A program made the translations under genes and the position numbers. The notes under the pieces were generated by a model. It searched no databases and was not told the origin of the DNA. It saw only the letters and a program-made list of their open reading frames with translations. A stretch of 64,000 bases of DNA from Spirochaetia bacterium (lineage in GTDB: Bacteria; Spirochaetota; Spirochaetia; SZUA-6; Bin103), in NCBI GenBank assembly GCA_965198005.1, contig CBDAOI010000004.1, forward strand, positions 32,001 through 96,000. Reading direction: 5' to 3'. How positions within the stretch are numbered: the first letter of the stretch is position 1; each line of letters opens with the position of its first letter. Positions 43,185 to 64,000 of the stretch are shown here, piece by piece.

Positions 43185-43257
43185 GGGGGATTAGCTCAGG
43201 TGGTAGAGCGATTGGTTCGCAATCAATAGGTCAGGGGTTCGAGTCCCCTATCCTCCA
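43185..43257 (+). tRNA. tRNA-Ala(CGC)
   Basis: GGGGGAT/ATCCTCC acceptor stem with G3-U70; anticodon arm ATTGG-TTCGCAA-TCAAT; GGTTCGAGTCC. Confidence 0.97.
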
Positions 43258-45369: not shown

Positions 45370-45492
45370 TGACGGCCGCGCCACCTGCCGGCGGGATGCA
45401 CCCGCGCCCGCGCATGGTCGAGCTGGCACACGGCCGTGCTGCCTTGACCGGTCAATTTGAGACCTACGCCCTAAACATTGATACATGCTCCG

Positions 45493-46629: not shown

Positions 46630-47409
46630 TCACGAAGACGGCAGGAGGTGCAGCAGACCCTGCTCGATCAGGGTCTGGAAGTGCAGCACCGTGGTCGCCG
46701 CCAGAGTGCGATCTCGCACCAGGAGTCCCAGCTCGATGTTGCGGTCGAATGCGGCTTCGGTCAGGTTCGCGGAAGTGATGAACACCGCTTCGTCGTCTGC
46801 CACCACCGCTTTGGCGTGGAGCACCCCGCCGGGCCCGTCATCTGCGACGGAACGCGGGTCGTAGTACACCCTCGGGCGGGTCTTGCCGGGCCACGCCTTT
46901 CCCCAGAAGTGATCCGCGAAGCGGCGCACCAGGGTATCCGCCGCGGTAGTGTCGCCGCGCCGGCGTTCGATGTTGAGTAGCAGCGTAACCTTAAGCAACG
47001 GGTTCGCATCCAGCCGCCCGGCGAGCGTCGCAAACGCGGTCGGCCCATCGAAGAACGCGTAGCTGCACACCCAGATCGAATGTTGCGCTGAGCCGATCAA
47101 CTCCTCGTACACCCGGCGCGTGTCGCGCGCGTGCAGCCCGACGACCTCCGGGCCGGTCCAGACGAAGTCGGGCGCCGGCGCTCGGTCCGCCGCGCGCGCC
47201 AGACTGTTCAGCCAGATGACTCCCGCCTCCGGCGAGACGCCGATGCGCTGCCACTCCCGGAGCACCTGCAGGATCCCATCCTGATGGTCGCCGCCGACCG
47301 TCGAGCGGACGGCAACCTCCGAGTACGGTGGGACGAGTTGGCGGGATTCCAACGCGCTCAACAGCCTACTGCGCACGTACGGCGGTAGCGCAAGAAGTGC
47401 GGCGATCAC
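46630..47409 (-). CDS. drmC: DISARM PLD nuclease
   Basis: VWTGP, RDTRRV, LHAKAVVAD, TSANLT..A..RNIELG; follows drmB. Confidence 0.9.
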   Translation of the reverse strand: MIAALLALPPYVRSRLLSALESRQLVPPYSEVAVRSTVGGDHQDGILQVLREWQRIGVSPEAGVIWLNSLARAADRAPAPDFVWTGPEVVGLHARDTRRVYEELIGSAQHSIWVCSYAFFDGPTAFATLAGRLDANPLLKVTLLLNIERRRGDTTAADTLVRRFADHFWGKAWPGKTRPRVYYDPRSVADDGPGGVLHAKAVVADDEAVFITSANLTEAAFDRNIELGLLVRDRTLAATTVLHFQTLIEQGLLHLLPSS

Positions 47410-47419
47410 GGAGCGCCGA

Positions 47420-49219: not shown

Positions 49220-49279
49220 TCGCCGCTCCCGCTGAGCCGGCTGCACAGCTGTCGACCGGCGCCCTTACTACCTCTTGAA

Positions 49280-49864
49280 CTATGCATGGTCAACGCCATT
49301 GAGGAGCGCCTCCAGAAAGCCTCTGAAGCTCGGACTGCGACGAGCGATGGTCTCCGCATCCAGAGTGCGGGCGATCTCCTCCGAGACGCGAGCGGTATAT
49401 CCCTGGCTGAGAATGTTCTTCAAGTGAAGCTTGGGGTTCTCTATCTCGTCCGGACGCGAGTCATCGACTCTTCCCAGGTCGCGCTTGAGATAGCCTCGGA
49501 GATTCCCACCGTCAGCGAAGTACCATGCTTCGAGATGCCGTTGCGCGTGTGCGTATTGCATCTTCTTCTCGATCTCATCGGGTAACCGACGGGATAGTTC
49601 GTCTCTTATCTGACGCACAACCTGATCGGGTGAGTTCCTATCGACATCTACCAGCAGGACGATTTTGTCCAGCTCGGCACCCAGGTTCTCATACCATAGC
49701 GACTTGATGATCTTTTCTGCCACGCCGACATCAAGTGCCTTGTTTCGTGGTGGAATACGCACGTCATCCACCGAAGTGCCCTGCTGCTGGAGATGTGACA
49801 CAAGTTGCGGCAGCGAACGCCGCTCGGTCTCGCCGGAGGCAACGACGACCACGTGACCAGCCAC
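49280..49864 (-). CDS. DUF4276-like (TOPRIM-type) protein
   Basis: VVASGETE, LVDVD, EAWYFAD, SPSF; directly downstream of an ABC ATPase. Confidence 0.75.
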   Translation of the reverse strand: MAGHVVVVASGETERRSLPQLVSHLQQQGTSVDDVRIPPRNKALDVGVAEKIIKSLWYENLGAELDKIVLLVDVDRNSPDQVVRQIRDELSRRLPDEIEKKMQYAHAQRHLEAWYFADGGNLRGYLKRDLGRVDDSRPDEIENPKLHLKNILSQGYTARVSEEIARTLDAETIARRSPSFRGFLEALLNGVDHA

Positions 49865-49865
49865 G

Positions 49866-50999
49866 TCAAGGCGCCCCGAAGCCCTTCGTCTGATGAAATT
49901 CGCCCAAGCTGAATCCTGAAGCGTTCAGAGCACGGCGAACTCCGTCGGGATTCGCTTCGCGATTGACGGCTGTCCCCTCCCGGTCACCACGTTGTACGAC
50001 GCATACGGAAGCCGGATCGTCCAGTAGATCGAGCAGCAGGGGCGAGTGCGTCGTCACCATGAATTGTACACGGTACTGGGAATCGCGCAGATACTCGACG
50101 AAGGCAGACAGAGCGCTCGGGTGGATGTAGTTCTCCGGCTCCTCGATTCCCAACAAGTTCGTCTCCGGTTTTCCGAGGAGCGCCGTCATCAGTGCTAGCG
50201 TTCGCAGTGTCCCGCTAGACACTCCCATCTGGTGGACAGAGTAATGGAGACCCGGCTCCGACTGCACGAAATAAAACCGATCTTCCGACTCGCGCGTTTC
50301 GATGCCCACCGGGAGACCGACGATGTTCTGAGTCGCAGAACGGATACGGTCTACGATCTCGGGAGACGAACTGGCAAGGGCATGAAGCGTCTCACCCAGG
50401 TTGCGCCCGTAATGATCGAGTCGGCTCGATTCCAGTCCTGACCAGTCACGGCGGAGCAGAAACGGATTCGGATCGAAGAAGCCCCACCGACGCACGAAAT
50501 CAGCGATTTCGCGTGCGGGAAAGGACGCGTCCGCTGCGGCGGCCGCGAGCGCACAGACCGTCGCCGGCTGCTCCATCTCGACTCGCTCGCTCGTGGTGTT
50601 TGACCACCACCAGCCGGTTCCACCGTCGGCCTCCAGCAACACGACTGGTGGAGACTGGGACGGGAGCCGTGCAACACGCTCCCCGACGCGAAAGTGATGT
50701 CCTTGTCTCGTGATCTGAATCGACCATTCGGTAGACTCTTCATCGTCCTGCAGAATCACCGCCAAGTCGATCTGATGCGCTTGCTCACCCTTCCACGCAA
50801 GATTGAGGATACCCCCGCGCGTAAACACCGGTGCTTCGAAGTCACGGGCATGCATTCCTTCATGGAGAAAGCGCAGCGCATCGAGGATGGTGCTCTTTCC
50901 GGCGGCGTTGGCGCCAATGAACAGGTTGAAGTCCTCCAACTTGATGCTCACGTCGCGCAGACTGCGATAGTTCTTCGCCTTGAGGCTCAACAACTTCAT
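49866..50999 (-). CDS. AAA_21 ABC-type ATPase
   Basis: IGANAAGKS, SSGT, IEEPEN.IHP, TTHSP. Confidence 0.9.
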   Translation of the reverse strand: MKLLSLKAKNYRSLRDVSIKLEDFNLFIGANAAGKSTILDALRFLHEGMHARDFEAPVFTRGGILNLAWKGEQAHQIDLAVILQDDEESTEWSIQITRQGHHFRVGERVARLPSQSPPVVLLEADGGTGWWWSNTTSERVEMEQPATVCALAAAAADASFPAREIADFVRRWGFFDPNPFLLRRDWSGLESSRLDHYGRNLGETLHALASSSPEIVDRIRSATQNIVGLPVGIETRESEDRFYFVQSEPGLHYSVHQMGVSSGTLRTLALMTALLGKPETNLLGIEEPENYIHPSALSAFVEYLRDSQYRVQFMVTTHSPLLLDLLDDPASVCVVQRGDREGTAVNREANPDGVRRALNASGFSLGEFHQTKGFGAP

Positions 51000-51067: not shown

Positions 51068-54000
51068 TCACGCGCCGTTCCTGGCGAGGCGGCTGGAGAG
51101 GTCCTGCAGGAACAGGTTCACCTGCGGCTCGACGTCGCGCAGCGACCGGTTGGTGCGGAACTTCTTGTGATGGGCGGACTCGAAGTCGGTGTCCAGCATC
51201 TCGCGCAGGAGCGGCCTTCTGGTCCGGACCTCATGCTTCTGATACTGCATCGTCACGCCGTCAGCGCGGTAGTCGTCAAGGATCGCCCGCCACGAGTCGA
51301 GCAGGTCACCGATCCGGTTCTGAACGCTGCGCCGCCGCTCTTCGCGTTCGTCGTCGTCCTGCAGAGGCTGTTCGTTGATCCGGGCGCGGAAGACATCGAG
51401 CAACAGTCGTTCGAGCTCCACTCGCTCTGCCTCGATCGCCTCCACCCCGGCCGGCGGCGTCATCGCCGGGCGTGAGTGACGGGCAAGCGTCACCACTGCC
51501 CCCGCGAAGCCGCGATCCAGGGCGCGGGCCGCGAACGGCGTCACGCTGGCGACCTCGACCGAGCGGTAGAAGGTCTCGTGGTAGTGCCGGAAGCGTTCGT
51601 AATGCGACCGGTCACGCGGGCGGTGCACGTTGTAGAGCGTCACCACCAGTCCGGGGCGGCGATCATCGCGTCCGACCCGGCTGGTGGCCTGGATGTACTC
51701 CGCATTGGTCTTCGGCTGGCCGTAGACCAGCATCAGCCCGAGCCGCTGAATGTCCAGGCCCACCGAGATCATGTTGGTGGCGATGGCGCAGTCCACCCGC
51801 TGCTTGCGGTCGTGGAAGGTGGTTTGCAGCCGCCGCCGCGCCTCGGCCACGCGGTCGGTGCTCACCCGCGAGGTCAGCTCGACCACGTCGGAGAAGCTGG
51901 AGCGGTCGCGAAACAGACCCTGCGCCTCGCCGAGCCGCTTGCGGTCGCCGTAGCGCTTGAGCGTGTTCTGGACCTCTTCTTCCAGGATGCGCCGCGCGCC
52001 GCCGAGTTCGCGCAGGCTGTTGAAGTAGCCGAGCACGGTCATGTAGGGATCGGCCGGGTTGTCCGGATTCCGGGGACCGCCGGCGTCGCGCCACGCCCGC
52101 TCGGCCGCGCCCATGAGCGTCAGTACTACCCGGCGCATCGCCTCCTTCGGGTTGCGGCCCTGGGAGGCGATCCCTACGTACTCGCGCGCATTGCGCTCCG
52201 ATGCGGGCATGGTGCGGGCGAAGAACGAATCGCTGCGTGCCGGTCCCGGCGGCGGGAAGACGTGCGTCGCCGGTCGCCCGAACAGCCCCTGAATCTGTTC
52301 CCGCGCGCGGCGAACCGTGGCCGTGGAAGCGACGATCTTCGGCTTCACCTGCCGGCCGTCGATCTCCCGCACGCACAGCGCTTCGATCGCCGCCTCGTAG
52401 AGGCCGGCCATGGTCCCGAGCGGCCCGGAGATCAGGTGCAACTCGTCCTGGATGACGAGGTCCGGCGGCGGGAGCGGACGGCTCAGACGGTTGCCGCGGC
52501 GCGGTTCGGCCGCGCCGTAGAACCCGACGTCGTCATGGCGGTCGGCGCCGCCGAGGAGCGCGCCGGATTCGCCCACCCACGGCAGCGACGCGAACTTGTC
52601 CACGGTGGCGACCAGAAAGGCGGGCAGGCGCCGGTACAATGGCTCGTCCACGGCGACGATCGGCAACGGCGTGTCGCCAGAGAAGTCGCACTCCCAGTCG
52701 GCGCAGACGATACGCAGCTCGGTGGGATGGTCGGCGTCCGGCAGCAGCGTGAAGGAATTCGGGGTGAAATCCTCGCCACACCAGGGGCAGGCCTCCAGCG
52801 GAATGGGCGCCGGCTTGCCCTGCGGATTGTTCTTGTACTGGCTGACCTTGCTGCGCGCCGAGTCCGAACGGTTGTCGCCGCGTTCGCCGAGTCGGTTGGG
52901 CGTGCCCGCCTTGCCCACCCACAAGCCGATTTCGAACGGCCACCCGCCGTACCGGCCGGCGTCCTTGCGCCGCTCCAGCTCCAGTGCGCACACCAGGCCG
53001 GCGGCGCGTCCAAGCTGGTCCAGGGTCAGCAGCCGCAGGGTGTATCGCATGATGACGCTGACTCCGGCTCCAGCCCGGCCGCCGTCTTCCGGATTGCGCA
53101 GCCGCCGCAACACCATGGTAAACGCGGCGAGCCCGAGATACGCCTCGGTCTTGCCGCCGCCGGTCGGAAAGAACAGCAGGTCCACGAACTCACGTTCCGG
53201 ATTGGCGGGGTCGGCGAGACCGGGGAGGTTCAGCAACAGGAAGGCGAGCTGAAAGGCGCGCCAGCGTGGCGGCTCGGAACCCCTTTCGCGGGCCAGGCGC
53301 CGCGCCAGCGCCGCGGCAACGGCGCGGTTCGCGACGCGGAAGGCATCGAGTGCGTCCTGATCCTGAGCCAGCACGCGGATGCCCCGTTCGATGCGGCCGG
53401 CGGCGGACCGGGCATGGAACAGAAGCTCCTCGGCGGTGTCACGTGCCTCACCCGCCGGGTCGGTCAGCGCGGCGTGCTGCTGCTTGATCCAGGCCTGGTA
53501 ACCGGTAGCCAGCGGCGTCAACGCACGTTCCGCGGCGGCGCCGTCGGTCAAGTCGCCGAGCGCCGCCATGCCGAGTTCCACCCGCGGCATCTCGACGGTC
53601 TCCGTCTTCTCGACGTGGGCCGACGGAATCCACCTGGTGAGAATGAGGCGGCAGGCTGTGTCGGCCAGCTCCCAGTCCGCCGCAACCCCGTGGCCGGCCG
53701 CGTATTCGGGCGTATCGGCGTAGTGCAGATCGGCGACGCGCTCATCGGGATCGTCGCCGGTCCCTCCGCGCGGATCGGGCCGCGGGACGAACGGCGCTGG
53801 GCCGGTCACCTCCAACTGGGCCTGAAAGGCGAACGCCTCGTCGCGCACAGCCTCCGCTGACGGGGGCCGTTCGTTCACCAGGAACACCGACACGGAGCGC
53901 GTCCCCGGAGCGATCCGGCCCGCAAGGCTCTCAGCGTTCACAGGACGGGCGACCACGTGGAGGAGCAGCCCGCGCGAACCGGGGACGCGGTACTGGCGCG

Positions 54001-54556
54001 TATCGTTCGCAGCCGGAATCATCACCGGGACGGCCTCCTGATGGGGCACACGTTGCCACCAGGTCGACGCCGTACGGCTGTCCCCCGCGGCAGCCTCGTC
54101 GTCCGTGCTCTCCGTCCCGTCGCGCGACTCCCCGGTTTCGGCCGCGCCATCCGAGCCTTCGGCCTCCGAGGCTCCTTCCGTGACGGGGCGGTAGTCGCCC
54201 CAGCAGACCGTCAACTCGAGGTCGTCGACTTCCGCCGCAACCAGAAAGCTCAAGCCCATCGAAGACGGAAAGAAGCCCTTCTTGGCCGGTCGGCGGTCTT
54301 CCGTGGAATCATCGCCGAGACCGCCTTCACCCGCGACCTCCGGATCGAAGTCATCGTCCGCGTCGGCGTCCGCGCGCTGTTCCGCCGGCGCCCCTCGTGG
54401 GACCAGAAACCCCGTAAGGTACCAGTTGGACGGCCGCACCCACCCCGGCAGCCGCTCGTCCGCCAGTGGATGCCAAGCCCCGGGACCAACCAGGTCGAGC
54501 TCCAGCGCCTCCCGCAGCCGGAAGCGCACGCCAACCGGTCGGGTCACCTGCCCCAT
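51068..54556 (-). CDS. drmA: DISARM helicase
   Basis: LDLVGP, PSSMGLSF, FPTGGGKTEAY, QDELHL, ASTAT, QATSRVGR. Confidence 0.94.
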   Translation of the reverse strand: MGQVTRPVGVRFRLREALELDLVGPGAWHPLADERLPGWVRPSNWYLTGFLVPRGAPAEQRADADADDDFDPEVAGEGGLGDDSTEDRRPAKKGFFPSSMGLSFLVAAEVDDLELTVCWGDYRPVTEGASEAEGSDGAAETGESRDGTESTDDEAAAGDSRTASTWWQRVPHQEAVPVMIPAANDTRQYRVPGSRGLLLHVVARPVNAESLAGRIAPGTRSVSVFLVNERPPSAEAVRDEAFAFQAQLEVTGPAPFVPRPDPRGGTGDDPDERVADLHYADTPEYAAGHGVAADWELADTACRLILTRWIPSAHVEKTETVEMPRVELGMAALGDLTDGAAAERALTPLATGYQAWIKQQHAALTDPAGEARDTAEELLFHARSAAGRIERGIRVLAQDQDALDAFRVANRAVAAALARRLARERGSEPPRWRAFQLAFLLLNLPGLADPANPEREFVDLLFFPTGGGKTEAYLGLAAFTMVLRRLRNPEDGGRAGAGVSVIMRYTLRLLTLDQLGRAAGLVCALELERRKDAGRYGGWPFEIGLWVGKAGTPNRLGERGDNRSDSARSKVSQYKNNPQGKPAPIPLEACPWCGEDFTPNSFTLLPDADHPTELRIVCADWECDFSGDTPLPIVAVDEPLYRRLPAFLVATVDKFASLPWVGESGALLGGADRHDDVGFYGAAEPRRGNRLSRPLPPPDLVIQDELHLISGPLGTMAGLYEAAIEALCVREIDGRQVKPKIVASTATVRRAREQIQGLFGRPATHVFPPPGPARSDSFFARTMPASERNAREYVGIASQGRNPKEAMRRVVLTLMGAAERAWRDAGGPRNPDNPADPYMTVLGYFNSLRELGGARRILEEEVQNTLKRYGDRKRLGEAQGLFRDRSSFSDVVELTSRVSTDRVAEARRRLQTTFHDRKQRVDCAIATNMISVGLDIQRLGLMLVYGQPKTNAEYIQATSRVGRDDRRPGLVVTLYNVHRPRDRSHYERFRHYHETFYRSVEVASVTPFAARALDRGFAGAVVTLARHSRPAMTPPAGVEAIEAERVELERLLLDVFRARINEQPLQDDDEREERRRSVQNRIGDLLDSWRAILDDYRADGVTMQYQKHEVRTRRPLLREMLDTDFESAHHKKFRTNRSLRDVEPQVNLFLQDLSSRLARNGA

Positions 54557-54572
54557 GTCGACTCCTGCACCA

Positions 54573-54755
54573 TCAGCGCGGTCGAAAATCCGCTCGCCTC
54601 ACCGCCAGGAGCGTGAATCGAGGCCGTGGCCAGAATGATGCGCGCCGGGCGCATCCCGGTGGACTCTTCGTAGAGCCGGCGCTTGCGCTCCGGATGGGTC
54701 TGAATCGTACGTCCGACGCTGTCGGCGATCTCGACGAGAACGTGCTGTCGATCAT
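54573..54755 (-). pseudogene. Collapsed copy of the HEPN gene
   Basis: Starts MID and ends FTLLAVRRADFRPR*, like 55934-56482 (MID...FTLLTVRRADFRQR*); the same spacer and drmA start follow. Confidence 0.65.
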
Positions 54756-54758
54756 GGA

Positions 54759-55082
54759 TCACGACGTGGAACCGCTCGCCGGCGATGGTGCCCGATGGAG
54801 GGTTGAAGCCGGCCGAATGCCGTCGATGAGCTGATGTCTGTCCCTCGCGAGCTTGCGAAAGTCGCATTCCACCTGGAGTCCGTGCCAGAACTGATCCGAC
54901 TGACGGAAGAAGGCGCCGAAGCGAATAGACATGGCCGGCGTAATCGACCGCCGGCCATGTACGATCTCATTGATTGCACGAGGGGCAACGCCTAGCGCGC
55001 GACTCATTGCGTTCTGAGAGATCCCCATCGGCTTGAGGTATTCCTCAAGGAGAATCTCACCGGGTGTAATCGGAATGTTCAT
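54759..55082 (-). CDS. higA: HigA-family antitoxin
   Basis: [20 protein letters not shown]...[12 protein letters not shown]...FW..LQ. Confidence 0.9.
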
Positions 55083-55120
55083 CTATTTGACTCTCATACC
55101 AATACGCCATGTGACCATTG

Positions 55121-55168
55121 TCAATGGTAGTCGATCATGACCACTTGGTCGGGTCCGGAATCGGTCCA
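55121..55168 (-). pseudogene. higB: HigB toxin C-terminal remnant
   Basis: Manual translation WTDSGPDQVVMIDYH*, the typical HigB C-terminus, just upstream of higA. Confidence 0.7.
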
Positions 55169-55917
55169 CTTCCAGCTCGGCTTGGAAGGCGAACGCCTCG
55201 TCGCGGGCGGCGTCGGCTGCGGGGGTCCGCCCGTTCACCAGGAACAGCGACACGGATCGCGTCCCCGGCGGAATCCGGCCCGCAAACGTCGTAGCGCTCA
55301 CTGGGCGGGCGACCACATGGAGGATCAGCCCTTGAGAGCCCGGCACCGGCTCCTGGTACGGATCGTCCGCTGGGGCAAGCGTCACCGGGACGCTTTCTTC
55401 ACAGGCCGCGCGTTGCCACCGCGTCGACGCTTTTTCCTCACTCTTCACAGCCGCCCCGTCGACCGCGCCCTCCGTCCCGCCGGACGACTCCCCGCTATCG
55501 GGCGCATCGTCGGTCCTTCCGTCGTCCCGGGATGCGTCCTCGACGTAGCGGTAGTGACCCCACCGGACGGTCACAGCCGGCCTGTCGACGCCCTTTGCGA
55601 CCAAAAAGCTCAGGCCCATCGACGACGGAAAGAAGCTCTTCTTGGCTGATCGGCGGTCTTCCGTAGAGTCATCGCCGAGACCGCCTTCAACCGCGACCTC
55701 CAGATCGAAGTCATCGTCCACGTCGGCATCCGCGCGCTGTTCCGCCGGCGCTCCACGTGGTACAAGCAAACCCGTGAGATACCAGTTGGACGGACGCATC
55801 CACCCCGGCATCCGTTCCGCCGCCAGCGGATGCCCGGCCCCGGGACCAATCAGGTCCAACTCAAGCGCCTCCCGCAGCCGGAACCGCACGTCAGCGGGTC
55901 GGGTCATCTGCCCCCAT
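55169..55917 (-). pseudogene. drmA: Truncated second drmA (N-terminal ~250 aa)
   Basis: Colinear with drmA up to FAFQA.LEV, then fused to the higB remnant; extra G after the ATG. Confidence 0.9.
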
Positions 55918-55933
55918 GCCGACTCCGGCACTA

Positions 55934-56482
55934 TCAGCGCTGGCGAAAGTCGGCTCGCCTCACCGTGAGAAGCGTGAACAGCGCCTCGCGTGCTGCGTCC
56001 GAGGAGTCACGAAGCCGTGTTCGAGCAAGTCGAGCATTCCGACATGCCTCGAGGAGATGCCACTTGACGAACATGACCTCATGATCGTAGTCCGCCAAAT
56101 GCCGATGTTCCTGCATGTCGTTGAACAATCGAAGGCTCTCAACGAGTGCAACATCTTTGGCGACCACGTCAAGCAAAGGTCCGAGTTTCTCAAGCCGTCC
56201 CGGTAGTGGAGCGTCGGGGGCGTGCGTCAGAGTGATGGATCGCTCGACGACGTGCTCCGCAAGCTCCGAGATCTCTCCATGTGACCATGAGCGGCGAATC
56301 TCGTTCTGAATATCGCGAGCGCACGAGGCGACCAGATGATCTGCAGCGTGACTGGTAACGTCATGAAAAACGGCATAGTACGCCGTGCTGATGCCGCGCC
56401 TGATGGCCGCGTCCGTCAGACGCACCGGACGATTGTCCGCAATCTGCTCCGCATGGTCCATAAGGCCGTCGGGGTCAATCAT
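55934..56482 (-). CDS. HEPN-like protein
   Basis: RRGISTAYYAVFH and QEHRHLADYD motifs; overlaps the upstream partner gene. Confidence 0.75.
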   Translation of the reverse strand: MIDPDGLMDHAEQIADNRPVRLTDAAIRRGISTAYYAVFHDVTSHAADHLVASCARDIQNEIRRSWSHGEISELAEHVVERSITLTHAPDAPLPGRLEKLGPLLDVVAKDVALVESLRLFNDMQEHRHLADYDHEVMFVKWHLLEACRNARLARTRLRDSSDAAREALFTLLTVRRADFRQR

Positions 56483-56840
56483 GCACAGTCACCCTGGGGC
56501 GTCCGGCAACCGTGACCACGTAGACACCCCATTCATCGACCTTGGTGCCGACCAAGCGCCGCCGCAGGTCGTCGATCGCGCTTCCGGCTGCTTCATATGG
56601 ATAGTCACGTGTGTCTGAGTCGTTGTCGAGATCAAGCACTACCGCGAACACGAAGATCAAGCGATCCTTGCTGCCGTACCGGGTGGTCCATTCGGCGTCG
56701 TAAGCCGGAGAGTCCGCCGGCAGGTTCTCGACGAACTCCGTCCTGACCCGCTCGGCGTCCTGCTTCGCCGCGTCCAGCGCCGCCTGGAACTCGGCGGCAC
56801 TGAGCTCATCCTGCCACGGGTACACGCTCGGGTAGCTCAT
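56475..56840 (-). CDS. Unknown HEPN-partner protein, copy 3
   Basis: 121 aa; near-identical N-half to 57138-57506 and 57517-58002. Confidence 0.75.
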   Translation of the reverse strand: MSYPSVYPWQDELSAAEFQAALDAAKQDAERVRTEFVENLPADSPAYDAEWTTRYGSKDRLIFVFAVVLDLDNDSDTRDYPYEAAGSAIDDLRRRLVGTKVDEWGVYVVTVAGRPRVTVHD

Positions 56841-56847
56841 GGTCCTC

Positions 56848-56876
56848 AGCCTACCGGGCTATTGCCTCCCTCTCAA
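56848..56876 (-). promoter_or_regulatory. Putative leaderless sigma70 promoter, copy 3
   Basis: TTGAGA-17-TAGGCT-7 nt-ATG; hexamers conserved in three copies while spacers diverge. Confidence 0.65.
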
Positions 56877-56989
56877 GCTCGATGCCGACGGCTCCGACGG
56901 GTGTGCTGCCTCTCGCCGGTGCCGCTCACCGCTTCGCCCACGCTCGCGGTCGTGCCGAATCCGACCGTTCGTAATCCTGCGGCGAAGCC

Positions 56990-57145
56990 ACCAGATGAAA
57001 TGATTCGCGGCGTGTCCGGTCAGGTCATGACAGACCGCTCAGTAGGCAGCGCTGCGCGATGCCTGAGAGCCCCGTCCGTCGGACGACCTCCGCCGGCGCC
57101 CGCAAGCTACTCCGCGTGCCCGAGGAGTCCGTCGGGGTCAATCAT
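56990..57145 (-). pseudogene. Degraded HEPN copy
   Basis: MIDPDGLLGHAE*LAG...RPTDGALR, frameshift, SAAY*AVCHDLTGHAANH. Confidence 0.8.
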
Positions 57146-57506
57146 CGGATGACGATCGGGGGCGACCGGTCACGGTGACCACGAAGACGCCCCACTTACC
57201 AACCTTGGTGCCGGCAATTCGCCTGCGCAGGTCAGTGGTAGCGTTATCCGCCGCTTCGCCGGGGTAGTCACGTATATCGAAGTCGTCACCGTCGAGATCA
57301 AGCACCACCGAGAACACGAAGATCACTCGATCCTTGCTGCCGTACCGGGTGGTCCACTCGGCGTCGTAGGCGGGAGAGCCGGGCGGCAGGCTCTCGACGA
57401 ACTCCTTCCTGACCCGCTCGGCGTCCTGTTTCGCCGCGTCCAGCGCCGCCTGAAACTCGGCAGCACTGAGCTCATCCTGCCACGCATACACGCTCGGCCA
57501 GCCCAT
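57138..57506 (-). CDS. Unknown HEPN-partner protein, copy 2
   Basis: 122-aa intact paralogue. Confidence 0.75.
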   Translation of the reverse strand: MGWPSVYAWQDELSAAEFQAALDAAKQDAERVRKEFVESLPPGSPAYDAEWTTRYGSKDRVIFVFSVVLDLDGDDFDIRDYPGEAADNATTDLRRRIAGTKVGKWGVFVVTVTGRPRSSSDD

Positions 57507-57513
57507 GATCCTC

Positions 57514-57542
57514 AGCCTACCGCGCTATGCCGTCCCTCTCAA
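57514..57542 (-). promoter_or_regulatory. Putative leaderless sigma70 promoter, copy 2
   Basis: TTGAGA-17-TAGGCT-7 nt-ATG. Confidence 0.65.
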
Positions 57543-58002
57543 GCTCAGATGGGCATGTGCGTTCTTGTTGGCAGCTCGTCCGTTCCTCGTCGTTCGCTCG
57601 ACGCTCCCCGAGCGTCCGCTCAGGCGAGACACTCAGTGCATCGGATGACTGTCTGGGGCGACCGGTTACGGTGACCACGAAGACACCCCGTTTAGCGACC
57701 TTGGTGCCGAGCAGGCGTTTGCGCAGGTCAGTGGTCGCGTTACGTGCCGCTTCGTAGGAATAGTCACGTATATCGAAGTCGTCACCGTCAAGATCGAGCA
57801 CCACCGAGAACTCGAAGATCAATCGATCCTTGCTGCCGTACCGGGTGGTCCACTCGGCGTCGTAGGCGGGAGAGCCGGGCGGCAGGCTCGCGACGAACTC
57901 CTTCCTGACCCGCACGGCATCCTGCTTCGCCGCGTCCAGCGCCGGCTGGAACTCCGTGGCACTGAGTTCATCCTGCCACGCATACACGCTCGGCCAGCCC
58001 AT
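57517..58002 (-). CDS. Unknown HEPN-partner protein, copy 1 (stop lost, read-through tail)
   Basis: Matches copy 2 up to ...GRPR.SSD, then 40 unrelated residues where the HEPN gene would be. Confidence 0.7.
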   Translation of the reverse strand: MGWPSVYAWQDELSATEFQPALDAAKQDAVRVRKEFVASLPPGSPAYDAEWTTRYGSKDRLIFEFSVVLDLDGDDFDIRDYSYEAARNATTDLRKRLLGTKVAKRGVFVVTVTGRPRQSSDALSVSPERTLGERRANDEERTSCQQERTCPSELERDGIAR

Positions 58003-58009
58003 GATCCTC

Positions 58010-58039
58010 AGCCTACGCAGGCCATCTCATCCCTCTCAA
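58010..58039 (-). promoter_or_regulatory. Putative leaderless sigma70 promoter, copy 1
   Basis: TTGAGA-18-TAGGCT-7 nt-ATG. Confidence 0.6.
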
Positions 58040-58051
58040 GCTCGATACTAC

Positions 58052-58155
58052 GCTGCTCGTTCGCCAGCATATGCCTGGCTCCCGGACCTATCAGCTCGAG
58101 CGCACGCGCGTGCCGCAGCCGGTACCGTGTCATCGGGTTGGACCACCTGCTCCAT
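58052..58155 (-). pseudogene. drmA: Third, degenerate drmA 5' end
   Basis: GGAG-5nt-ATG GAG CAG GTG..., then RYRLRHARALELIGPGARHMLANEQ versus drmA RFRLREALELDLVGPGAWHPLADER. Confidence 0.75.
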
Positions 58156-58176
58156 GTCATCTCCAGAAGCCATCCG

Positions 58177-58740
58177 CTACCGCAGCAGCGCGCTGACCGC
58201 ACGCCACAGCTTGTCGAAGGAGGCCGAACGCCGGCGCGCCAACGGCATGTCGAATCTGGCGGTAAAGGCAGCCTGATCTGCGGTCGGTCGGTAAGGCGTC
58301 TGCATATCATATGCCGGCCGAGCCACTCCTTGGCGCCGCGAATCGACTCCGGGTCGGGCGGTGCAACGAGGTCGCGGGCGAGTGTGCGGCTGCCCGCGAT
58401 GGATTCAACGGAAGCGAGAAGCCATGCTTCGTACTCGTACTTCGCCAAGACGGCTTCGATACGCCGATCCGGGCGTGCTCTGCGGGCGCGTGCAAGGAGA
58501 GCGGGACCGAGACGCGCAGGACACGCTCCGTTGGCGTCGAGCAGGATCAGGATACCGCCGCCGGCGCCAACGCGTTGCGCGGCGAGACCGACGTATCCTC
58601 GATCGAGGGACGCGGATGGGCTTCAGGACTGCCGGAGGACTGACCGGGGCGAGTTCCTGCACGATCCGCCGGAGCAGCACCGGTACCGCCTGGACTTCGC
58701 CGTTGCCTTCGACGACCGTCATGATGGCCGCCAAGATCAA
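58177..58740 (-). pseudogene. DUF4276 protein with two frameshifts
   Basis: VVEGNGEVQAVPVLLRR / ILILLDA...EYEAWLLAS...RGAKEWL / YRPTADQAAF...RSASFDKL in successive frames. Confidence 0.8.
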
Positions 58741-59963
58741 GCCTTACGGAACAGGTCGACCCGTTGTGATGCCGACACGTCGGAAGCCGGGTGAAGCTGG
58801 TCGATGCGAAGCAACTCGCCGGCGGTGAAGGTTCCGTCTTGCAGTACCGAGCTGCCTACATCGTCCAGCGGGCCGATCTTCGATTCCCCGTCGACGTACA
58901 CGACCGGTAAGATCGACTTTATGGGAACCGAGTCTCGATCCAGGAGATCGGCGCTATGGGTAGTGACGACGACCTGAGTGTATTCGCTCGCCTCCAGCAG
59001 CACGTCCATCAGTACGCCGGCGCTTTCGGGATGGAGTGCGACCTCCGGTTCCTCGATACCGACCACGTGAGTGTGGATCCCGGCCCCTGATTTCTGCAGG
59101 AGCGCGAGGAGAACGCCCAGAAAATGCAGCGTCCCGTCCGACATGCTGTCGCCAAAATACGTCACAAGGTGTGCCTCACCAGGCACCCGTTGGTGGAACC
59201 GTAGCACGTGTCTGTTGCCAACGCCGTGGGCGTCCACTCCTGCGATTTCGGGAACGACCGCTGCGAGATAGTCGGCAAGGCGTTGGACGCTGCCGGGACG
59301 CTGGGACTTCATGTTTGCCAGTACGCCGGCGGCGTTACTGCCGTCGGGCGCAAGCGCACAGTCGCCGGCCGGAGTCTGAAATCCTCCGAGGCTGCGCGGA
59401 TCAATATGGTAAAATGCCATACTCGACAGTGCATCGTATACCGGACGGAACTCCGGTACGCTCGAAGCGCGCACCAGATACAGCGATCCGCGGTCTACCA
59501 GCGGTGGATATGCGAGCGAGCTGGCAGTACAGCGACCGTTCTCGATCCGAAAAAACTGCTCCGCGCCGTCGCCGTTGGTCCTCACGTGGCACTCTTCGCG
59601 TCGCACGACGTAGCCGCCATCGTCGTGCGCCCCGATGTCGAATGCATACCAGCCGGGCGTGTCCGCCAGCCGAAAGTCAAGACGAATGCCGAAATAGTGT
59701 GGCTCCGGCACCCCTCGGTGGCAGACTTCCGCAATGCCGCCCCGCTCCCGCAAGGCGTGTTCCAGCGAGATGCCCAGCGCCTCGACCGTGAATCTCAGCG
59801 CGTCCAGAAAATTGCTCTTGCCCGCACCATTGCGGCCCACTACGATGGCCAATGGCCCCAGCGAGACATCGCACGCGGCAATGCTCTTGAAATTTCGCGA
59901 CGCCACATGCGTGATCAATCGGCGAGCAGCGACTGCGACGAGGGGGCGCTGTTCCACCATCAA
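58737..59963 (-). CDS. AAA_21 ABC-type ATPase
   Basis: VGRNGAGKSN, MSDGT, IEEPEVALHP, TTHS. Confidence 0.9.
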   Translation of the reverse strand: MMVEQRPLVAVAARRLITHVASRNFKSIAACDVSLGPLAIVVGRNGAGKSNFLDALRFTVEALGISLEHALRERGGIAEVCHRGVPEPHYFGIRLDFRLADTPGWYAFDIGAHDDGGYVVRREECHVRTNGDGAEQFFRIENGRCTASSLAYPPLVDRGSLYLVRASSVPEFRPVYDALSSMAFYHIDPRSLGGFQTPAGDCALAPDGSNAAGVLANMKSQRPGSVQRLADYLAAVVPEIAGVDAHGVGNRHVLRFHQRVPGEAHLVTYFGDSMSDGTLHFLGVLLALLQKSGAGIHTHVVGIEEPEVALHPESAGVLMDVLLEASEYTQVVVTTHSADLLDRDSVPIKSILPVVYVDGESKIGPLDDVGSSVLQDGTFTAGELLRIDQLHPASDVSASQRVDLFRKA

Positions 59964-60415
59964 GCTGTCTCCAGTGATGCTGTCACAGCGTCCGATCGTT
60001 CGTTCAACGCTCGGAACAGTCCACTCTCCGGTGCAACACGTGTATAGAACTGTGGCGGATGAAAGGAACGGGCTACGCGCCTTATGCTTCTTATCGGCAT
60101 CGGATCATCCAGCCTTCTCACTCCCTCTAGCAACAAGGCAGACACTTGAGGTCGATCGCCGACGTAGTGCTCGAATCCCACCCAGTCGATACACATTTGA
60201 CTGCGGAAGCGTCTCCATATCGCCACGGGACTATCATGGACTACCGACTTTACTTCTGCCATAGCGACGATTTCGCCTACTGGGCGTGTGACGTAGATCC
60301 AGATCGTCGTACCTGGCTCGATCCTGACGATCCTGTTTCGAAGCTCCACCGTCTTGGAACCACACAGCACCAGTTTGCCGTATGCAGGCTTGAGTGATAT
60401 GATCACCTGCTTCAT
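59960..60415 (-). CDS. ASCH-domain protein
   Basis: ISLKP.Y...G.KTVELR, IYVT.PV, PPQ.Y. Confidence 0.85.
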   Translation of the reverse strand: MKQVIISLKPAYGKLVLCGSKTVELRNRIVRIEPGTTIWIYVTRPVGEIVAMAEVKSVVHDSPVAIWRRFRSQMCIDWVGFEHYVGDRPQVSALLLEGVRRLDDPMPIRSIRRVARSFHPPQFYTRVAPESGLFRALNERSDAVTASLETA

Positions 60416-61017
60416 CACACTACAGCCTCTCCGAATCCTTCCTTAACGATACCCATAAGTGCCTCCGATGAGACGCTCCGAGCAGTCCTGAGATTGGCGC
60501 CCCCAACGCAGTCCATTTGCTTGAGCTTCTTGAAGTCGATGCTCACAGGAAACTCCAATACATTATCGAATGTGAATATCGTAATCTCGTTACGATCGTT
60601 TGCGCGTTGACCTATTTCGTCCTCCGTCAACACTCCTTGTCTGTTCAGGTTCGTCACTGCCTGAGTTTTCGTAATGGTGTCCGAGAATGTCACCCTGGCT
60701 AGTGCAACTGCTTGCCCGCGCTTTCCACTCGCATAGAACACGACTATCGTTCCTCGCGGAAACAGTCTATGCACTCCAGCTCTGAGGTAGTAGACTCTCT
60801 CGATCCGCAAGGCGGACTCGCTCTGCCAAAACACTCCTTCGGACCGTGTTTGGGGAAGGAGTTCGTCCGAATACCGTTCCTTGATCGGGACAACCACCGC
60901 GGATCGTCCCGGCCCAATCAAGTACCCCGGAGAAATGAACGTCTCAAAATCGAAGAGTGTCATCGTGAAGGATGGCTGACCACTATCGCGCCCGAGGACG
61001 ACACCGGTGTTGCTCAT
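60415..61017 (-). CDS. PUA/ASCH-like domain, probably the C-terminal fragment of a larger protein
   Basis: VVPIK..Y...L, ERVYY, VVFYASG and RQGVL motifs; begins at the point where the SIR2 gene is cut. Confidence 0.55.
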   Translation of the reverse strand: MSNTGVVLGRDSGQPSFTMTLFDFETFISPGYLIGPGRSAVVVPIKERYSDELLPQTRSEGVFWQSESALRIERVYYLRAGVHRLFPRGTIVVFYASGKRGQAVALARVTFSDTITKTQAVTNLNRQGVLTEDEIGQRANDRNEITIFTFDNVLEFPVSIDFKKLKQMDCVGGANLRTARSVSSEALMGIVKEGFGEAVV

Positions 61018-63347
61018 CTCGACAGGATTTCCGGTACGACCTTGGCGAGTAGAATGCCAAGGTTTTGGTCCCAGAAATGAGTTCCCGCTTGTATGTCAGC
61101 GAGAGCGAGGTCCAGAGCTCTGAGGTAACGGTCGACCATGCCGTCAACCGACGCGGTATCCATGCGGGCCACGGACGCGCGATCGAAGAGACATTCGACC
61201 GCTTTCGCATCGTTAAGGCGAATCAGCGTCGCCATCGCCCAGTACGGAGAGTGAGGAGCGACGCGAGACAAGGCTCCCGCCGCGGTCCTCGTGGCGATCG
61301 TACATCCGGGCATTCGAAAAGGTACGCCGGCTTCCTCACAAAATCGCAAGAATCGGTACGCGGTCAACGTCTCCGTGTCCTCGCGTTGGAAACTGCGACC
61401 CTGGGTGACCCTGCCGATGTCGAACGTGAACTTGCGCGTCGTGTTCTGTTTGTGCTCTGGCGGTCGATCTAGAGCGAGTTCAAATACTTCGAACTCCCCC
61501 CACGGGTCGCAACCGAATTGCCGAAGCGTATGCCAGCGGTCTGTGAAATCCTTGGCGGACTCCTCATACTTGGAGAGCTCTCCTGCCGGGAAGACCAACG
61601 CCAGTTGCACAGAGCGAAGCAGGAGCATGACGATCGACTCCTGCGAAGCAAGAGAATAGTCCGTTGTAACGGGCTTGAGGTTCGACCTGGTACGGATCGC
61701 TGCAAGGGAATTCTCAAGAATCCTCGCGGCATCTCGCAGTTGACCGATTTCTGCGAGCAGACCGGCGCGTTTCGCTTCCCAGAACGGTAGCGAGTCGTCT
61801 ACCGGCCACTCCTCGATCTTCTTCTTGACATCCTGCGGGTCAGGAGCGAACAGCGCGGCGAGCGCTCGTTCGTAGTGGAACCGGGCTCTATAGTCGGGGG
61901 ACATCGTTGTCACTAGGCCCTCGATCCTTTCGCAAGTGCCGTTCCACTTCTCCTGCAGGCCCTCTTCGCGGAAGTACCGCAACACCGCAAGTAACAGGTG
62001 ATGACACATGTCGCGAACCCCGCTTTGAGGGAGGCTTCGCCCATTCGTGTCCTTCGAGCTCGACGGCGATGAGTCGGTCGGAGCGTCAGCACCGGTCAGA
62101 GGTAAGTACCGATTCAGAGTGAGCTCAAGAAACTCGATCTGATTGTCGAAGATGGGGCACTGGCACTTCTCCATTCGCCAGATCAGCTCGAACGCAAACT
62201 CTAGATCGAGACTATCTGAAAAGCTGTCCGGGACTGGCAGTTTTCGAACCCACTCGCGAGTGGACCGCCAGAGAGCGACACGACGGTCGTCGGGAACGAT
62301 AACCCAACCCGGATACGAGCGCCGCTGGTCTCTCCACGTTGGCACGAGGCTGGAGATCTGGGAAGCTATTGCCTTATCCTTTCCACTGGTGTGAGCGTGA
62401 TCATCGTGTGGCCATCGAAGCCGACTGTAGTCTCTCTGTCTGGAATCGAAATAATCGGAGAGTCTCCGACTATGGTCTCTCCTTCTGGAGTCGAAAAAAT
62501 CGAAGAGTCGATGGAGCGCCTTGTTGTGGTCATCGGCGCCAATGTCCGGATACTGGGACAGGTCCACGCATACGATGTTTCGTTCGTCGAGTAGTTTCTT
62601 CTGGGAGTCGGACAGCCGGTATACGCCGACGAGATACATCTTGGGAGCGTCTCGGCGGCCGAGGTTGTCTGCGATCCATCCAATCCAATCCAGGAAATTG
62701 CGATCGTCGCCGGAGAAACCGATCAAGCATAGCGTGTTTTCCAGAAGTGCCTGACGAATCGTATTAACGAACGGTGCATGATCTTCCCGATAGCGGCGGT
62801 AGTCTTCGTCGGTGACGATCAGCCGAGAGGCGGGTGACAAACTGCCATGGAGTTTGACGATTCGTGGCCGGTCCGAGTTGATGAGATCCTGTTGATCGAC
62901 TACGATGCCGTATTTCTGCGAAGCGACCGATCTGCACGCTCTCTCAAGGAGAGTATCGTAATTGGTTGTGAAGACGTCCGACCACGGAAGACTGAGCAAC
63001 GCTATGTGTAATTCTGCTGGCTCGTGGTCCTCATCCGGAATGGCAGAGTTCAGGATCCGATCCAGAGCTGGCCGACCGAGGGTGGCTTCAACCTCTTTGG
63101 CCAAGGTTGGGACGCTGAGATACTTGGCTCCAGCGTCAGGCTGTTTGTGGTGAAGTTTCTCGTAGAACAGGTCTCCCAGCCCGGACCAGTCCGGAAACTG
63201 GGGAGATGAACCACCCCGCGGTTGCGCGTTCCGGCTAAAGCCGGATCCGATCATGACGGCCGCATGACCGGAGAACAGACGCTCGGCAATTTCGTTCAGA
63301 TACGGATAGAGATCGGAAGGAACTGGAGGGGATTCCGGTTCACTCAT
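61014..63347 (-). CDS. SIR2-domain defence-associated sirtuin (Dsr1-like), probably C-terminally truncated
   Basis: MIGSGFS, TTNYD, VKLHGS, LIGFSGDD; helical region with YPGW and LPFWEAKRAGLLAE; ends abruptly at PEILSR. Confidence 0.8.
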   Translation of the reverse strand: MSEPESPPVPSDLYPYLNEIAERLFSGHAAVMIGSGFSRNAQPRGGSSPQFPDWSGLGDLFYEKLHHKQPDAGAKYLSVPTLAKEVEATLGRPALDRILNSAIPDEDHEPAELHIALLSLPWSDVFTTNYDTLLERACRSVASQKYGIVVDQQDLINSDRPRIVKLHGSLSPASRLIVTDEDYRRYREDHAPFVNTIRQALLENTLCLIGFSGDDRNFLDWIGWIADNLGRRDAPKMYLVGVYRLSDSQKKLLDERNIVCVDLSQYPDIGADDHNKALHRLFDFFDSRRRDHSRRLSDYFDSRQRDYSRLRWPHDDHAHTSGKDKAIASQISSLVPTWRDQRRSYPGWVIVPDDRRVALWRSTREWVRKLPVPDSFSDSLDLEFAFELIWRMEKCQCPIFDNQIEFLELTLNRYLPLTGADAPTDSSPSSSKDTNGRSLPQSGVRDMCHHLLLAVLRYFREEGLQEKWNGTCERIEGLVTTMSPDYRARFHYERALAALFAPDPQDVKKKIEEWPVDDSLPFWEAKRAGLLAEIGQLRDAARILENSLAAIRTRSNLKPVTTDYSLASQESIVMLLLRSVQLALVFPAGELSKYEESAKDFTDRWHTLRQFGCDPWGEFEVFELALDRPPEHKQNTTRKFTFDIGRVTQGRSFQREDTETLTAYRFLRFCEEAGVPFRMPGCTIATRTAAGALSRVAPHSPYWAMATLIRLNDAKAVECLFDRASVARMDTASVDGMVDRYLRALDLALADIQAGTHFWDQNLGILLAKVVPEILSR

Positions 63348-63431
63348 GCAGTTTCCATGATAGCATCCAGTCACGACTTCCAGAAGCGTCGCTATTCATT
63401 GAAATCGGCGTCAGAGCGCGGTCGAACTGAG

Positions 63432-64000
63432 TCAGGTGCCGGCGTCACGCAGCGACGTCTGGCCTGCCGCTGGCGTCTCTCCTCGTCTTGGGCGCACGTC
63501 AGGCGCGCCGCGGACGACCTCGTCCGCAGCGCGTTCAGCGTTGAGGGCGAGGAGGCGGGCGAGCACCTCGTCGCGGACGGGGTCTGGCCAGCGGTAACGG
63601 TATGGCTTCCTTTTTTGGCCCCAGGTTGCCTCGTCGATTTGGTAGTCGAGGAGGAATTCGCAGTCGGTGCGAATGTCGTCCCAGCCGTAGGCATCGAGCA
63701 AAGCGCGGTCCATGGCCGTGTGCAACTCGCGGAGCTGGACGATCCGCGGATCGGTCTCATAGATGTCGTGAAAGCGGTTGTACGTACGCGTCATGCCTTC
63801 GGTGTTCGCCACCATGATCGCGGCGCGGTACTCGTAGTAGGAACGTCCAGCGGCTTCGAGCGAGCGATCGGCTTCCCAACCTCCCGGGAATGGAAAGGTT
63901 TCGAAACAATCGGATGGAGAGTAGTTCATATCGTCTTTCATCGTGGAGCTAAAGAACCTTGCCCAGACTTCGTGCGCGTTCGATTGCAGCGCACAGAAGG
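63432..64000 (-). CDS. C-terminus of DISARM class I adenine methyltransferase (DrmMI-like); starts beyond window
   Basis: HEVWARF.SST, YSPSDCFETFPFP, YNRFHD, LRELH..MD..L.AYGW, EVLARLLALN; upstream of drmABC. Confidence 0.8.
   Translation of the reverse strand, partial: FCALQSNAHEVWARFFSSTMKDDMNYSPSDCFETFPFPGGWEADRSLEAAGRSYYEYRAAIMVANTEGMTRTYNRFHDIYETDPRIVQLRELHTAMDRALLDAYGWDDIRTDCEFLLDYQIDEATWGQKRKPYRYRWPDPVRDEVLARLLALNAERAADEVVRGAPDVRPRRGETPAAGQTSLRDAGT

Follow-up and report, generated by a model that had tools for sequence, protein, structure and literature searches.

Remnants of displaced drmA alleles in a class I DISARM operon of a Spirochaetia bacterium, and a probable integrase-free route by which they came to be there

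[quoted passage not shown] (10.1101/2024.01.29.577857). The main text of that paper names a 'genomic sink' along with selfish linkage, names no insertion mechanism, and uses the word 'recombination' zero times; systems with pseudogenes were excluded from that survey, and HEC-01 was without defence in its assays. Considered here is such an operon as found on the minus strand of a 64,000-nucleotide stretch, which is what is meant by 'the window' (positions 32,001 to 96,000 of contig CBDAOI010000004.1, i.e., G000:C4:32001-96000), from a metagenome-derived Spirochaetia bacterium genome (GCA_965198005.1, here G000; 4.89 Mb in four contigs, 90% complete, 3% contaminated). This operon resembles those described by Payne et al. 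in its drmD-drmMI-drmA-drmB-drmC core and in its co-oriented cargo, including HEC-01, PDC-M11 and a Dsr2-like gene. It differs from them, as there presented, in possessing core-gene remnants, or 'stubs', which record insertion events.

A second kind of described system is found in Vibrio, where orphan effector-immunity arrays of type VI secretion systems (T6SS) arise by displacement via homology-facilitated illegitimate recombination (HFIR), a route cited also for Rhs and for contact-dependent inhibition (CDI) loci (Kirchberger et al. 2017, PMC5361080). The likeness to that account consists of integrase-free growth, a presumed anchor on one side only, members which are closer to other strains' alleles, remnants of displaced genes, and mosaic flanks. 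In the T6SS, Rhs and CDI arrays as there described, however, the anchor always is upstream and what is kept are 3' immunity modules, with clear benefit. Here, by contrast, anchors would lie on either side, it is the 5' ends of a core helicase that are left, with no evident use of these remnants, and donors would be other species of 75-90% nucleotide identity. The merodiploids to which transformation gives rise (Johnston et al. 2013, PMC3784515) likewise involve tandem second copies gained via recombination with incoming DNA and without an integrase, though in that description these are identical duplications of 100-900 kb bounded by insertion sequence repeats. Here the blocks instead are of a few kb, are of divergent alleles, and are eroded. 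Integron cassette arrays too show ordered accretion of small genes, with the newest next to one end. The locus is integron-like in its ordered accretion and in containing a two-gene module, X-HEPN, that bears a putative promoter, but neither an IntI above the cut-off nor an attC (54500-58800) turned up, and its joints vary and fall within coding regions.

What is met with is probably a known recombination route in a new class of locus. The accretion is of relatives' displaced alleles as opposed to duplicates in decay, and the start of drmA has no special part in it. Cargo embedded in DISARM is known, as are orphan arrays built by HFIR, and we did not find a publication joining both; nor, in the literature searched, outside of which lie most subscription papers, was a report found of core-gene stubs or of HFIR in DISARM or similar anti-phage operons. 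We consider it somewhat probable that this locus grows by HFIR insertion-deletion, with blocks from relatives' DISARM loci inserted and displaced alleles left behind as stubs.

By its predicted genes the locus is a class I DISARM, possessing both that core and drmD along with drmMI, and its anti-phage role is predicted from these genes. PADLOC matches are to DrmA (1e-278), DrmB (5e-82) and DrmC (1e-79) and, upstream, to DrmD, an SNF2 helicase (2e-302), and DrmMI, an adenine methylase (E=0). In order of transcription, drmMI is followed by a Dsr2-like gene to which PDC-M11A's 3' part is joined, then ASCH, HEC-01A, HEC-01B and stub 3. Next come two copies of a gene here called X, a HEPN 5' stub, a third X, an intact HEPN-like gene, and stub 2. 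After stub 2 come a 'filler' (545 bp), the tail of a HEPN gene, the intact drmA (51068..54556; 1162 amino acids; PDB 7s9v, 2e-170), a second and distant HEC-01 pair, drmB and drmC. All of these features are on the minus strand.

The initial annotation of the window described three drmA 5' ends, each as GGAG-5 nt-ATG plus drmA codons, at 54556, 55917 and 58155. All three are present on the minus strand, with the qualification that the 55917 ATG is out of frame, being shifted by one G (five rather than four). An in-frame ATG at 55907 opens instead a chimeric open reading frame (ORF) of 274 amino acids (55083-55907), the last 27 of which are foreign. Stub 2 itself (55171..55978) holds codons 1-250 from a drmA allele like that of G001, a congener, plus 60 nt upstream. 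In self-BLAST, 53803-54617 and 55162-55978 align over 818 nt at 78.7% identity (E=0). The roughly 60 nt that had been reported as common to the regions upstream of copies 1 and 2 are indeed so, at 85% identity; in front of the intact gene these are a HEPN-like gene 3' remnant plus spacer and ribosome-binding site (54557..54617). Serratia DrmA, as laid out in PMC9142583, has its trigger loop at 176-232 and RecA modules at 600-1150, and judged by that domain layout stub 2 lacks both RecA modules; the Serratia trigger loop aligns weakly to residues 71-128 here. Stub 3 (58052..58155) corresponds to codons 1-~35 of a third allele, is joined to an X leader, and matches the intact drmA over 128 nt (72.7%, E=1e-12). 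It carries a 2-nt deletion, has an end branch of 0.24 versus a median of 0.087, and does look decayed. It also stands directly after HEC-01B, an adjacency of HEC-01B and drmA which is kept in G012. The annotated rise of decay with distance from the intact gene thereby holds in part, i.e., for stub 3, whereas the identity gradient of stub 2 is mostly allelic distance. Overlooked altogether had been a nested array within the same interval, consisting of three copies of the 122-aa gene X plus the HEPN 5' stub.

The allelic origin of the stubs was considered against relatives, drmA being found in 18 of the 61 genomes searched (G000 included), with 15 relatives analysed; the loci of G027 and G053 were excluded as short fragments, and the drmA of G012, being split, was excluded from codon alignments. 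Stub 2 is 89.9% identical to the intact drmA of G001, 85.1% to that of G006 and 84.4% to that of G003, versus 78.7% to its own neighbour, and stub 3 similarly is closer to G001 (79.5%) than to its own intact drmA (72.7%). In the tree of codons 101-250, stub 2 falls within a 100/100 clade with G001, G006 and G003, and a grouping of stub 2 with its neighbour is rejected by the approximately unbiased (AU) test (p-AU 5e-105). Between stub 2 and G001, dN/dS is 0.38, versus 0.30-0.37 for intact allele pairs. The private changes of stub 2 (20 nonsynonymous, 15 synonymous) give a pN/pS of 0.40, which is below neutral (p=0.007) and within the range of three intact alleles (0.32-0.60). Since pN/pS is below neutral and dN/dS is intact-like, stub 2 was a working gene for most of its branch. 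A plain tandem duplication with subsequent decay was tried as an explanation and rejected on the codons 101-250 tree and on that pN/pS. Of the annotated 'recombination or duplication' by which cargo was to have been added, what stands is repeated, integrase-free, recombination-driven, stub-leaving accretion; what is not supported, for stub 2 and given its tree and pN/pS, is duplication of a neighbour followed by decay.

The intact drmA is itself a mosaic, as seen with both window identities and trees: Codons 1-~100 are congener-like and codons ~105-700 foreign, the switch lying near codon 100-105. For codons 251-700 a grouping with G001 is rejected (p-AU 1e-42). By contrast with that foreign portion, drmMI codons 1-600 are sister to G001 (100/100) and drmC codons 120-272 join G000 with G001 (98/97). 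The simplest reading of these sequences is that a resident, G001-like operon received a foreign drmA plus HEC-01' block, stub 2 presumably being the resident's remnant. As stub 2 and G001 are 90% identical, versus 84% for the rpoB region of the same pair, these alleles would appear to move laterally. Along DrmA codons ~100-400, third positions are ~50-70% identical among relatives, versus ~70-85% in the helicase core, and the pattern is mosaic; the N-terminal third of DrmA may be an allele-swapped, phage-facing region. Across 16 loci, 35/35 within-locus repeat pairs have at least one copy whose nearest match lies in another genome instead of being its partner, and in 29/35 this holds for both copies, a count that takes the best of 15 genomes over pairs which are not independent and which supports the reading without testing it. 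A single clade of the three X copies is rejected too (p-AU 0.008). Members of the array are, as in HFIR arrays, more similar to alleles of other strains than to the copies beside them.

The initial annotation had a defence gene stacked between the stubs with each round. Between stub 2 and the intact drmA there nonetheless is only the 545-bp filler: the last ~16 codons of higB (55121..55170), an orphan higA-type HTH antitoxin (54759..55082; Pfam HTH_3; 84-87% to higA of ten relatives), and a 180-nt internal fragment of a multicopy PDDEXK_10 gene (54613..54791; 80% to three copies on contig C3). The higBA locus of relative G007 matches the filler from the stub 2 joint onward. This filler is debris rather than a defence system. 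Its three joints have overlaps of ~4 nt (AGTG) at ~55170, i.e., the drmA/higB joint of stub 2, of ~7 nt between higA and PDDEXK, and of 5 nt (TTCAC) between PDDEXK and HEPN, all as judged against proxy parents of 80-87% identity and without a chance model. A further stub, in G018, is a separate 38-nt piece of drmA (E 1e-5) passing into the X leader via GAGCTTGA. At these four places the joints appear to be of the short-microhomology sort seen in HFIR arrays, and stub end points are scattered, lying at codon ~20 in G018, at ~35 and 250 in G000, and at ~67 in an unrelated locus (L106) taken up below.

The annotated absence of integron hallmarks held up. The attC core follows the pattern RYYYAAC-N40-130-GTTRRRY, of which there are zero matches on either strand over 54500-58800. 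None of the tyrosine recombinase matches listed, out of 46 in the genome, lies within ~170 kb of the locus, and the best genome-wide IntI match (TIGR02249) is 109 bits versus a cut-off of 265, in a genome that is 90% complete. Present in that genome are recA, dprA, comEC, Ku and mutS.

Relatives show the drmMI-drmA interval to be anything but fixed. It ranges from ~3.9 to 20 kb, with cargo differing, so an invariant interval explained by one old tandem duplication, which would have counted against accretion, is not what is found. Among 52 selected ORFs from these intervals are Dsr2-like, IetAS, PDC-M38, GmrSD, KAP NTPase, AbiE, ThsB and PD-Lambda-4 genes, an HNH effector, and transposases. The arrangement of stub 2 or of its filler is shared by none of the 15 relatives. 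Anchoring specifically on the drmA start, as had been proposed, is not borne out, for in relatives there are stubs as well of drmMI, drmC, PIN, HEPN, X and HEC-01, and drmA stubs occur also after drmC. Thus in G001 new cargo (Dsr2) is followed by a drmMI 3' stub; in G014 an internally deleted drmMI plus PIN stub precede the intact drmMI, such that there are two tandem drmMI-cargo-HEC-01-HEPN blocks with drmMI internally deleted in one; X and HEPN stubs are found in G003, G006, G014, G018 and G019; and downstream of drmC there are X-HEPN-drmA pieces in G022 and G023 and X-HEPN-drmC pieces in G003. In G003, G006 and G018 there are also matches to a drmA 5' profile in its acidic middle, which were discounted as probably low-complexity. 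Outside of this family, 72 loci from other taxa include a single one, L106, with a drmA 5' stub upstream (E 4e-28; 0.46 for the best control with reversed sequence). Stub-leaving accretion is frequent in the window's family and, among the other taxa covered, rare. As an observation apart, L106:1-4360, from an unrelated bacterium, holds a prokaryotic Argonaute (pAgo) system, then the 5' stub of drmA, two uncharacterised genes running on the other strand, and the intact drmA.

Under the HFIR reading, incoming DNA would pair with conserved core on one side, its other end would join by microhomology inside a resident gene, and the displaced resident allele would survive as a stub. An earlier round might have involved a [promoter-X-HEPN-drmA] block joining at codon ~35 of a drmA directly after HEC-01B, giving rise to stub 3. 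With the latest round, a block consisting of the higB tail, higA, PD-(D/E)XK fragment, HEPN tail, foreign drmA and HEC-01A'B' would have found its anchor on the downstream side, within late drmA or else drmB, and have joined a resident G001-like drmA at codon 250, giving rise to stub 2. Downstream anchors should yield 5' stubs in this manner and upstream anchors drmMI 3' stubs, the latter as in G001. The stubs, their allelic origin, the operon mosaic, the short joint overlaps, the variable cargo, and the lack of integrase or attC are what was observed; in what order the events took place, where the crossover lies, whether there was one step or two, and how the DNA entered we infer.

A number of points weigh against this insertion-deletion reading. 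Both stub 2 and the intact drmA are congener-like over codons 4-100 and come out, weakly, as sisters in the best tree (55/82), and there the dN of stub 2 is somewhat raised (0.075-0.10 versus 0.04-0.06). The crossover is not located, as G000 plus G001 is not rejected for drmA codons 701-1150 (p=0.26) and drmB trees are weak (G000+G001 72/37). Old shared duplications would give the same pattern over the 35 repeat pairs. No donor carrying the filler-drmA arrangement was seen in 30 relatives. Internally deleted second copies, i.e., as in G014, G022/G023, G003 and two other loci of G000, require extra deletions and fit a two-step course as well. HFIR is described as rare (PMC5361080). There is also mutS to contend with, and comEC and dprA have matches in 10-11 of 14 control genomes too, and therefore are no proof of transformation. 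Lastly, 39 of the 55 other-taxa loci with drmMI in view have a drmMI-drmA gap of at least 300 nt, so that, with a stub in only 1/72, most embedded cargo leaves no stub.

The two-step course just mentioned would have a relative's whole DISARM block integrate by single crossover, or unequal crossing-over be triggered by transformation, to yield a tandem merodiploid of two alleles, the redundant core of which then is eroded by microhomology deletions into stubs while some cargo is spared. This is possible, if doubtful. It accounts for internally deleted copies at least as well as does HFIR, fits the tandem blocks of G014 and the post-drmC pieces of G022/G023 and G003 along with collapsed second copies at two further loci of G000 (below), fits too the three-joint patchwork of the filler and the many positions at which truncated G001-type DrmA ORFs end in a protein collection, and has a precedent in transformation merodiploids, as these are set out in PMC3784515. 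Not seen, though, was a locus with two full drmA genes, whether among 16 family loci or the 72 others, and the resident-foreign-resident ancestry along the G000 operon follows from a single insertion-deletion without further steps. Unlikely is an old duplication in situ, of HEPN tail plus drmA 5' end, which captured the filler and was followed by double-crossover replacement of the intact gene's codons ~105-700. Such a duplication would explain the sister grouping and raised dN over codons 4-100, as well as the mosaic switch near codon 100-105. A dead copy of that age should, however, have changed in a near-neutral way, which is rejected (p=0.007), and instead its frame is open for 250 codons and its dN to the intact gene over codons 4-100 is only 0.076; dS there amounts to 0.33, which is not below that found with G001 (0.26-0.36), and the duplication is missing from all 15 relatives.

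Site-specific recombination in the manner of an integron, by an enzyme supplied in trans and with its site in the X leader or where drmA begins, could draw on the genome's 46 tyrosine recombinase matches and on X copies beginning at a conserved GAGCTTGAG leader. It is largely refuted, and thereby highly improbable, as stub end points are scattered; the leader, moreover, has promoter geometry, the genome contains its motif no more than twice, each time at this locus, and neither attC (54500-58800) nor an IntI passing the cut-off is present. Very unlikely as well, though compatible with any origin, is that stub 2 has been retained as a decoy or regulator, i.e., as a 274-aa DrmA N-terminal chassis with trigger-loop region but no helicase. 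Its open frame lies downstream of a promoter-like leader, its pN/pS is low, and the trigger loop (176-232 in Serratia DrmA, as given in PMC9142583) aligns, weakly, within it. Its native start is frameshifted, however, none of the 15 relatives shares it, and its having once been intact accounts for the purifying signal. Among close truncated DrmA ORFs, 32 in number, scattered frameshifts make up 15, those with short or missing tails 13, and those with foreign tails four. All three 5' ends of drmA are genuine. An assembly chimera of co-occurring strains, which would have undone the whole, is unlikely in the extreme. Logan contigs of four runs from two studies were placed on the locus (32 pieces listed, 5027 further), five other runs (X1-X5) being left out for their small shares. 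Among the pieces listed, contigs of 3/4 runs bridge stub 3 with zero differences, those of 2/4 runs bridge the higA-PDDEXK-HEPN tail (54561-54945) with 0-1 differences, and one X10 contig, from 1/4 runs, bridges the Dsr2/M11A joint. The 274-aa ORF spanning the 55170 joint is exact on five contigs, some of which may stem from one sample, a 238-aa form with that ORF's tail recurs on a separate 50-kb contig, and the X copy c ORF is exact on four. Speaking for a chimera are the metagenomic origin, completeness and contamination of the genome, the many strain variants mapping to drmA, and that none of the contigs listed spans the whole stretch, nor is the 55170 joint among the 32 pieces listed.

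Returning to growth by HFIR, its reach may extend beyond this operon. We would suggest, tentatively and with rather more doubt than for the locus itself, that defence systems come to be embedded quite generally through one-sided, integrase-free recombination between the conserved defence cores of species which co-occur, a process which runs fast in this family across species 75-90% identical, swaps core and cargo together with each round, and leaves in DISARM, restriction and Hma-like operons an ordered, datable record of displaced core alleles. A genome-wide scan of G000 for stubs was noisy, owing to antisense ORFs and transporter paralogues, and four further loci were followed up, while 437 pairs in 78 clusters were not taken as a number of stubs. 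Eroded core copies (75-98%), collapsed and partial, are found downstream at a ResIII-type locus (C2:120001-140000, L171), at a type IIG/DrmMI-like locus (C3:1128001-1148000, L172), and at a DUF1156/DUF499, HmaC-like locus (C4:1200001-1220000, L173), second copies at the first and last of these being 84-98% identical. The fourth proved to be a tandem pair of 2OG-Fe(II) genes. Thousands of defence genes lie inside DISARM, bacteriophage exclusion (BREX), Hma and type I restriction-modification operons, and the survey cataloguing them offers no entry mechanism. Remnants make such a mechanism testable, with a stub giving the allele, an ancestry switch the anchor, and a joint the illegitimate end. 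The displacement model for Rhs and T6SS is extended in this way to anti-phage operons, core helicase alleles are exchanged between species together with cargo, and core-gene fragments near defence operons become signals rather than annotation noise.

Two truncated DrmA proteins from other assemblies can be mentioned separately: P0157, in which DrmA 1-379 is fused to a HEC-01B' tail, and P0173, in which DrmA 100-254 is fused to drmMI 3' sequence. G000 also has a second, distant drmA-like fragment at C3:968348-969757 (amino acids 285-798, 41%).

The X-HEPN module makes up the nested array. Present are X copy a (56475..56885; 121 aa), copy b (57138..57551) and copy c (57517..58046), the homology of the last stopping at 57639 while its ORF runs on to 161 aa; each has a leader, that of copy a being promoter-like. 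The copies are 121-122 aa and 83-89% identical to each other in nucleotides. The intact HEPN-like gene (182 aa) lies at 55934..56482 and the HEPN-like 5' stub at 57000..57145, and the X-HEPN stub-X unit is found also in G006, at 84%. The X leader reads TTGAGA-17 nt-TAGGCT-7 nt-ATG, which is promoter geometry, with spacing conserved across relatives. A sigma-70 scan of 54000-59000 gave zero promoter matches, the X leader falling below threshold; the leader is a putative, as yet unproven promoter, recognised only through alignment across relatives. X has no Pfam or PADLOC match, its best Atlas match is 0.76, and among 120 listed of 182 homologues none bears a family name. A fold search with its predicted model (pLDDT, i.e., predicted local distance difference test, of 69) gave no clear match, the best having a Z of 8.2 (root-mean-square deviation 5.7 over 99 aligned) amid mixed OsmC/KH/CDF-CTD-like matches. 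The label 'HEPN', as given in the initial annotation, is kept here as HEPN-like only, there being no Pfam match and, as sole lead, an Atlas cluster (0.91) in which PF05168 is on 14% of members. In MNT-HEPN toxin-antitoxin pairs, a nucleotidyltransferase-fold gene lies upstream and a HEPN-domain gene downstream. X-HEPN is a candidate toxin-antitoxin or defence pair. In the window's family X and the HEPN-like gene form a conserved two-gene module with leaderless-type promoter geometry, found before drmA and after drmC, and distant pairs (~31% and 53% in amino acids) stand outside DISARM in L166 and L167. A metagenome scan with the HEPN-like protein returned six loci, of which one is X-HEPN-drmA, two are X-HEPN outside of DISARM, and none has a stub.

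Among the remaining genes of the operon, drmC (PLD; 46630..47478) has a 3' half which would be resident backbone, sister to G001, and drmB (47420..49246; PADLOC) is the likely, that is, putative region of homologous crossover. Between drmB and drmA lies HEC-01A'/HEC-01B' (an ABC ATPase plus DUF4276; 49280..50999; PADLOC), the best nucleotide match of which is G023 (87%) and which is missing at the post-drmA position in G001 and G003; the pair is a candidate for cargo acquired together with the foreign drmA allele. On the far side of stub 3 are HEC-01A (intact, 58737-59963) and a frameshifted HEC-01B (58150..59963 for the two; PADLOC), that frameshift being of identical letters in read contigs, and then PDC-M11B (ASCH) with the PDC-M11A 3' part (59960..61017). 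The Dsr2-like SIR2 gene (61014..63374) is cut at 786 aa, versus ~1260 aa in relatives, and joined to that M11A part. A 70-nt fragment of the drmD 3' end (63417..63487), an old remnant, forms the tail of drmMI, the 3' end of which is at 63432..64000 and which runs past the window; further upstream stand drmD and, in tandem, two ATPase-PIN pairs. The C-terminal tail of drmMI reads this drmD piece in another frame, and the repeat is found also in G001, G019, G020 and G022. The two ATPase-PIN pairs, between drmD and drmMI (L001:5407-9112, C4), are intact, 68% identical to each other in nucleotides, and of different allelic origin, with best matches in G022 (83%) and G023 (72%); relatives in which the drmD-drmMI stretch was in view have one pair versus these two.

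Some variation seen elsewhere stands by itself. The drmMI-drmA intervals of L036, L040 and L042 (G015, G010 and G009) contain a KAP NTPase plus NACHT/LRR pair with 66-nt repeats, the LRR gene of which has no PADLOC match. In G012 a reverse-transcriptase gene, group II intron-like, splits drmMI (L041:18366-19703). On contig C3 of G000, 50000-100000 (L002, L003) is a patchwork of shuffled repeats of 50-1500 nt, 80-99% identical, in which lie several coiled-coil PDDEXK_10 genes together with pieces of Dam-like methylases. No site of integration could be assigned to the operon, the tRNA-Ala at 43185 being 3.4 kb from drmC and the flanks in G000 matching no relative's. Beside that tRNA-Ala (43185-43258) is a DUF222-HNH element (43405-45480), many near-identical copies of which are found on all four contigs.

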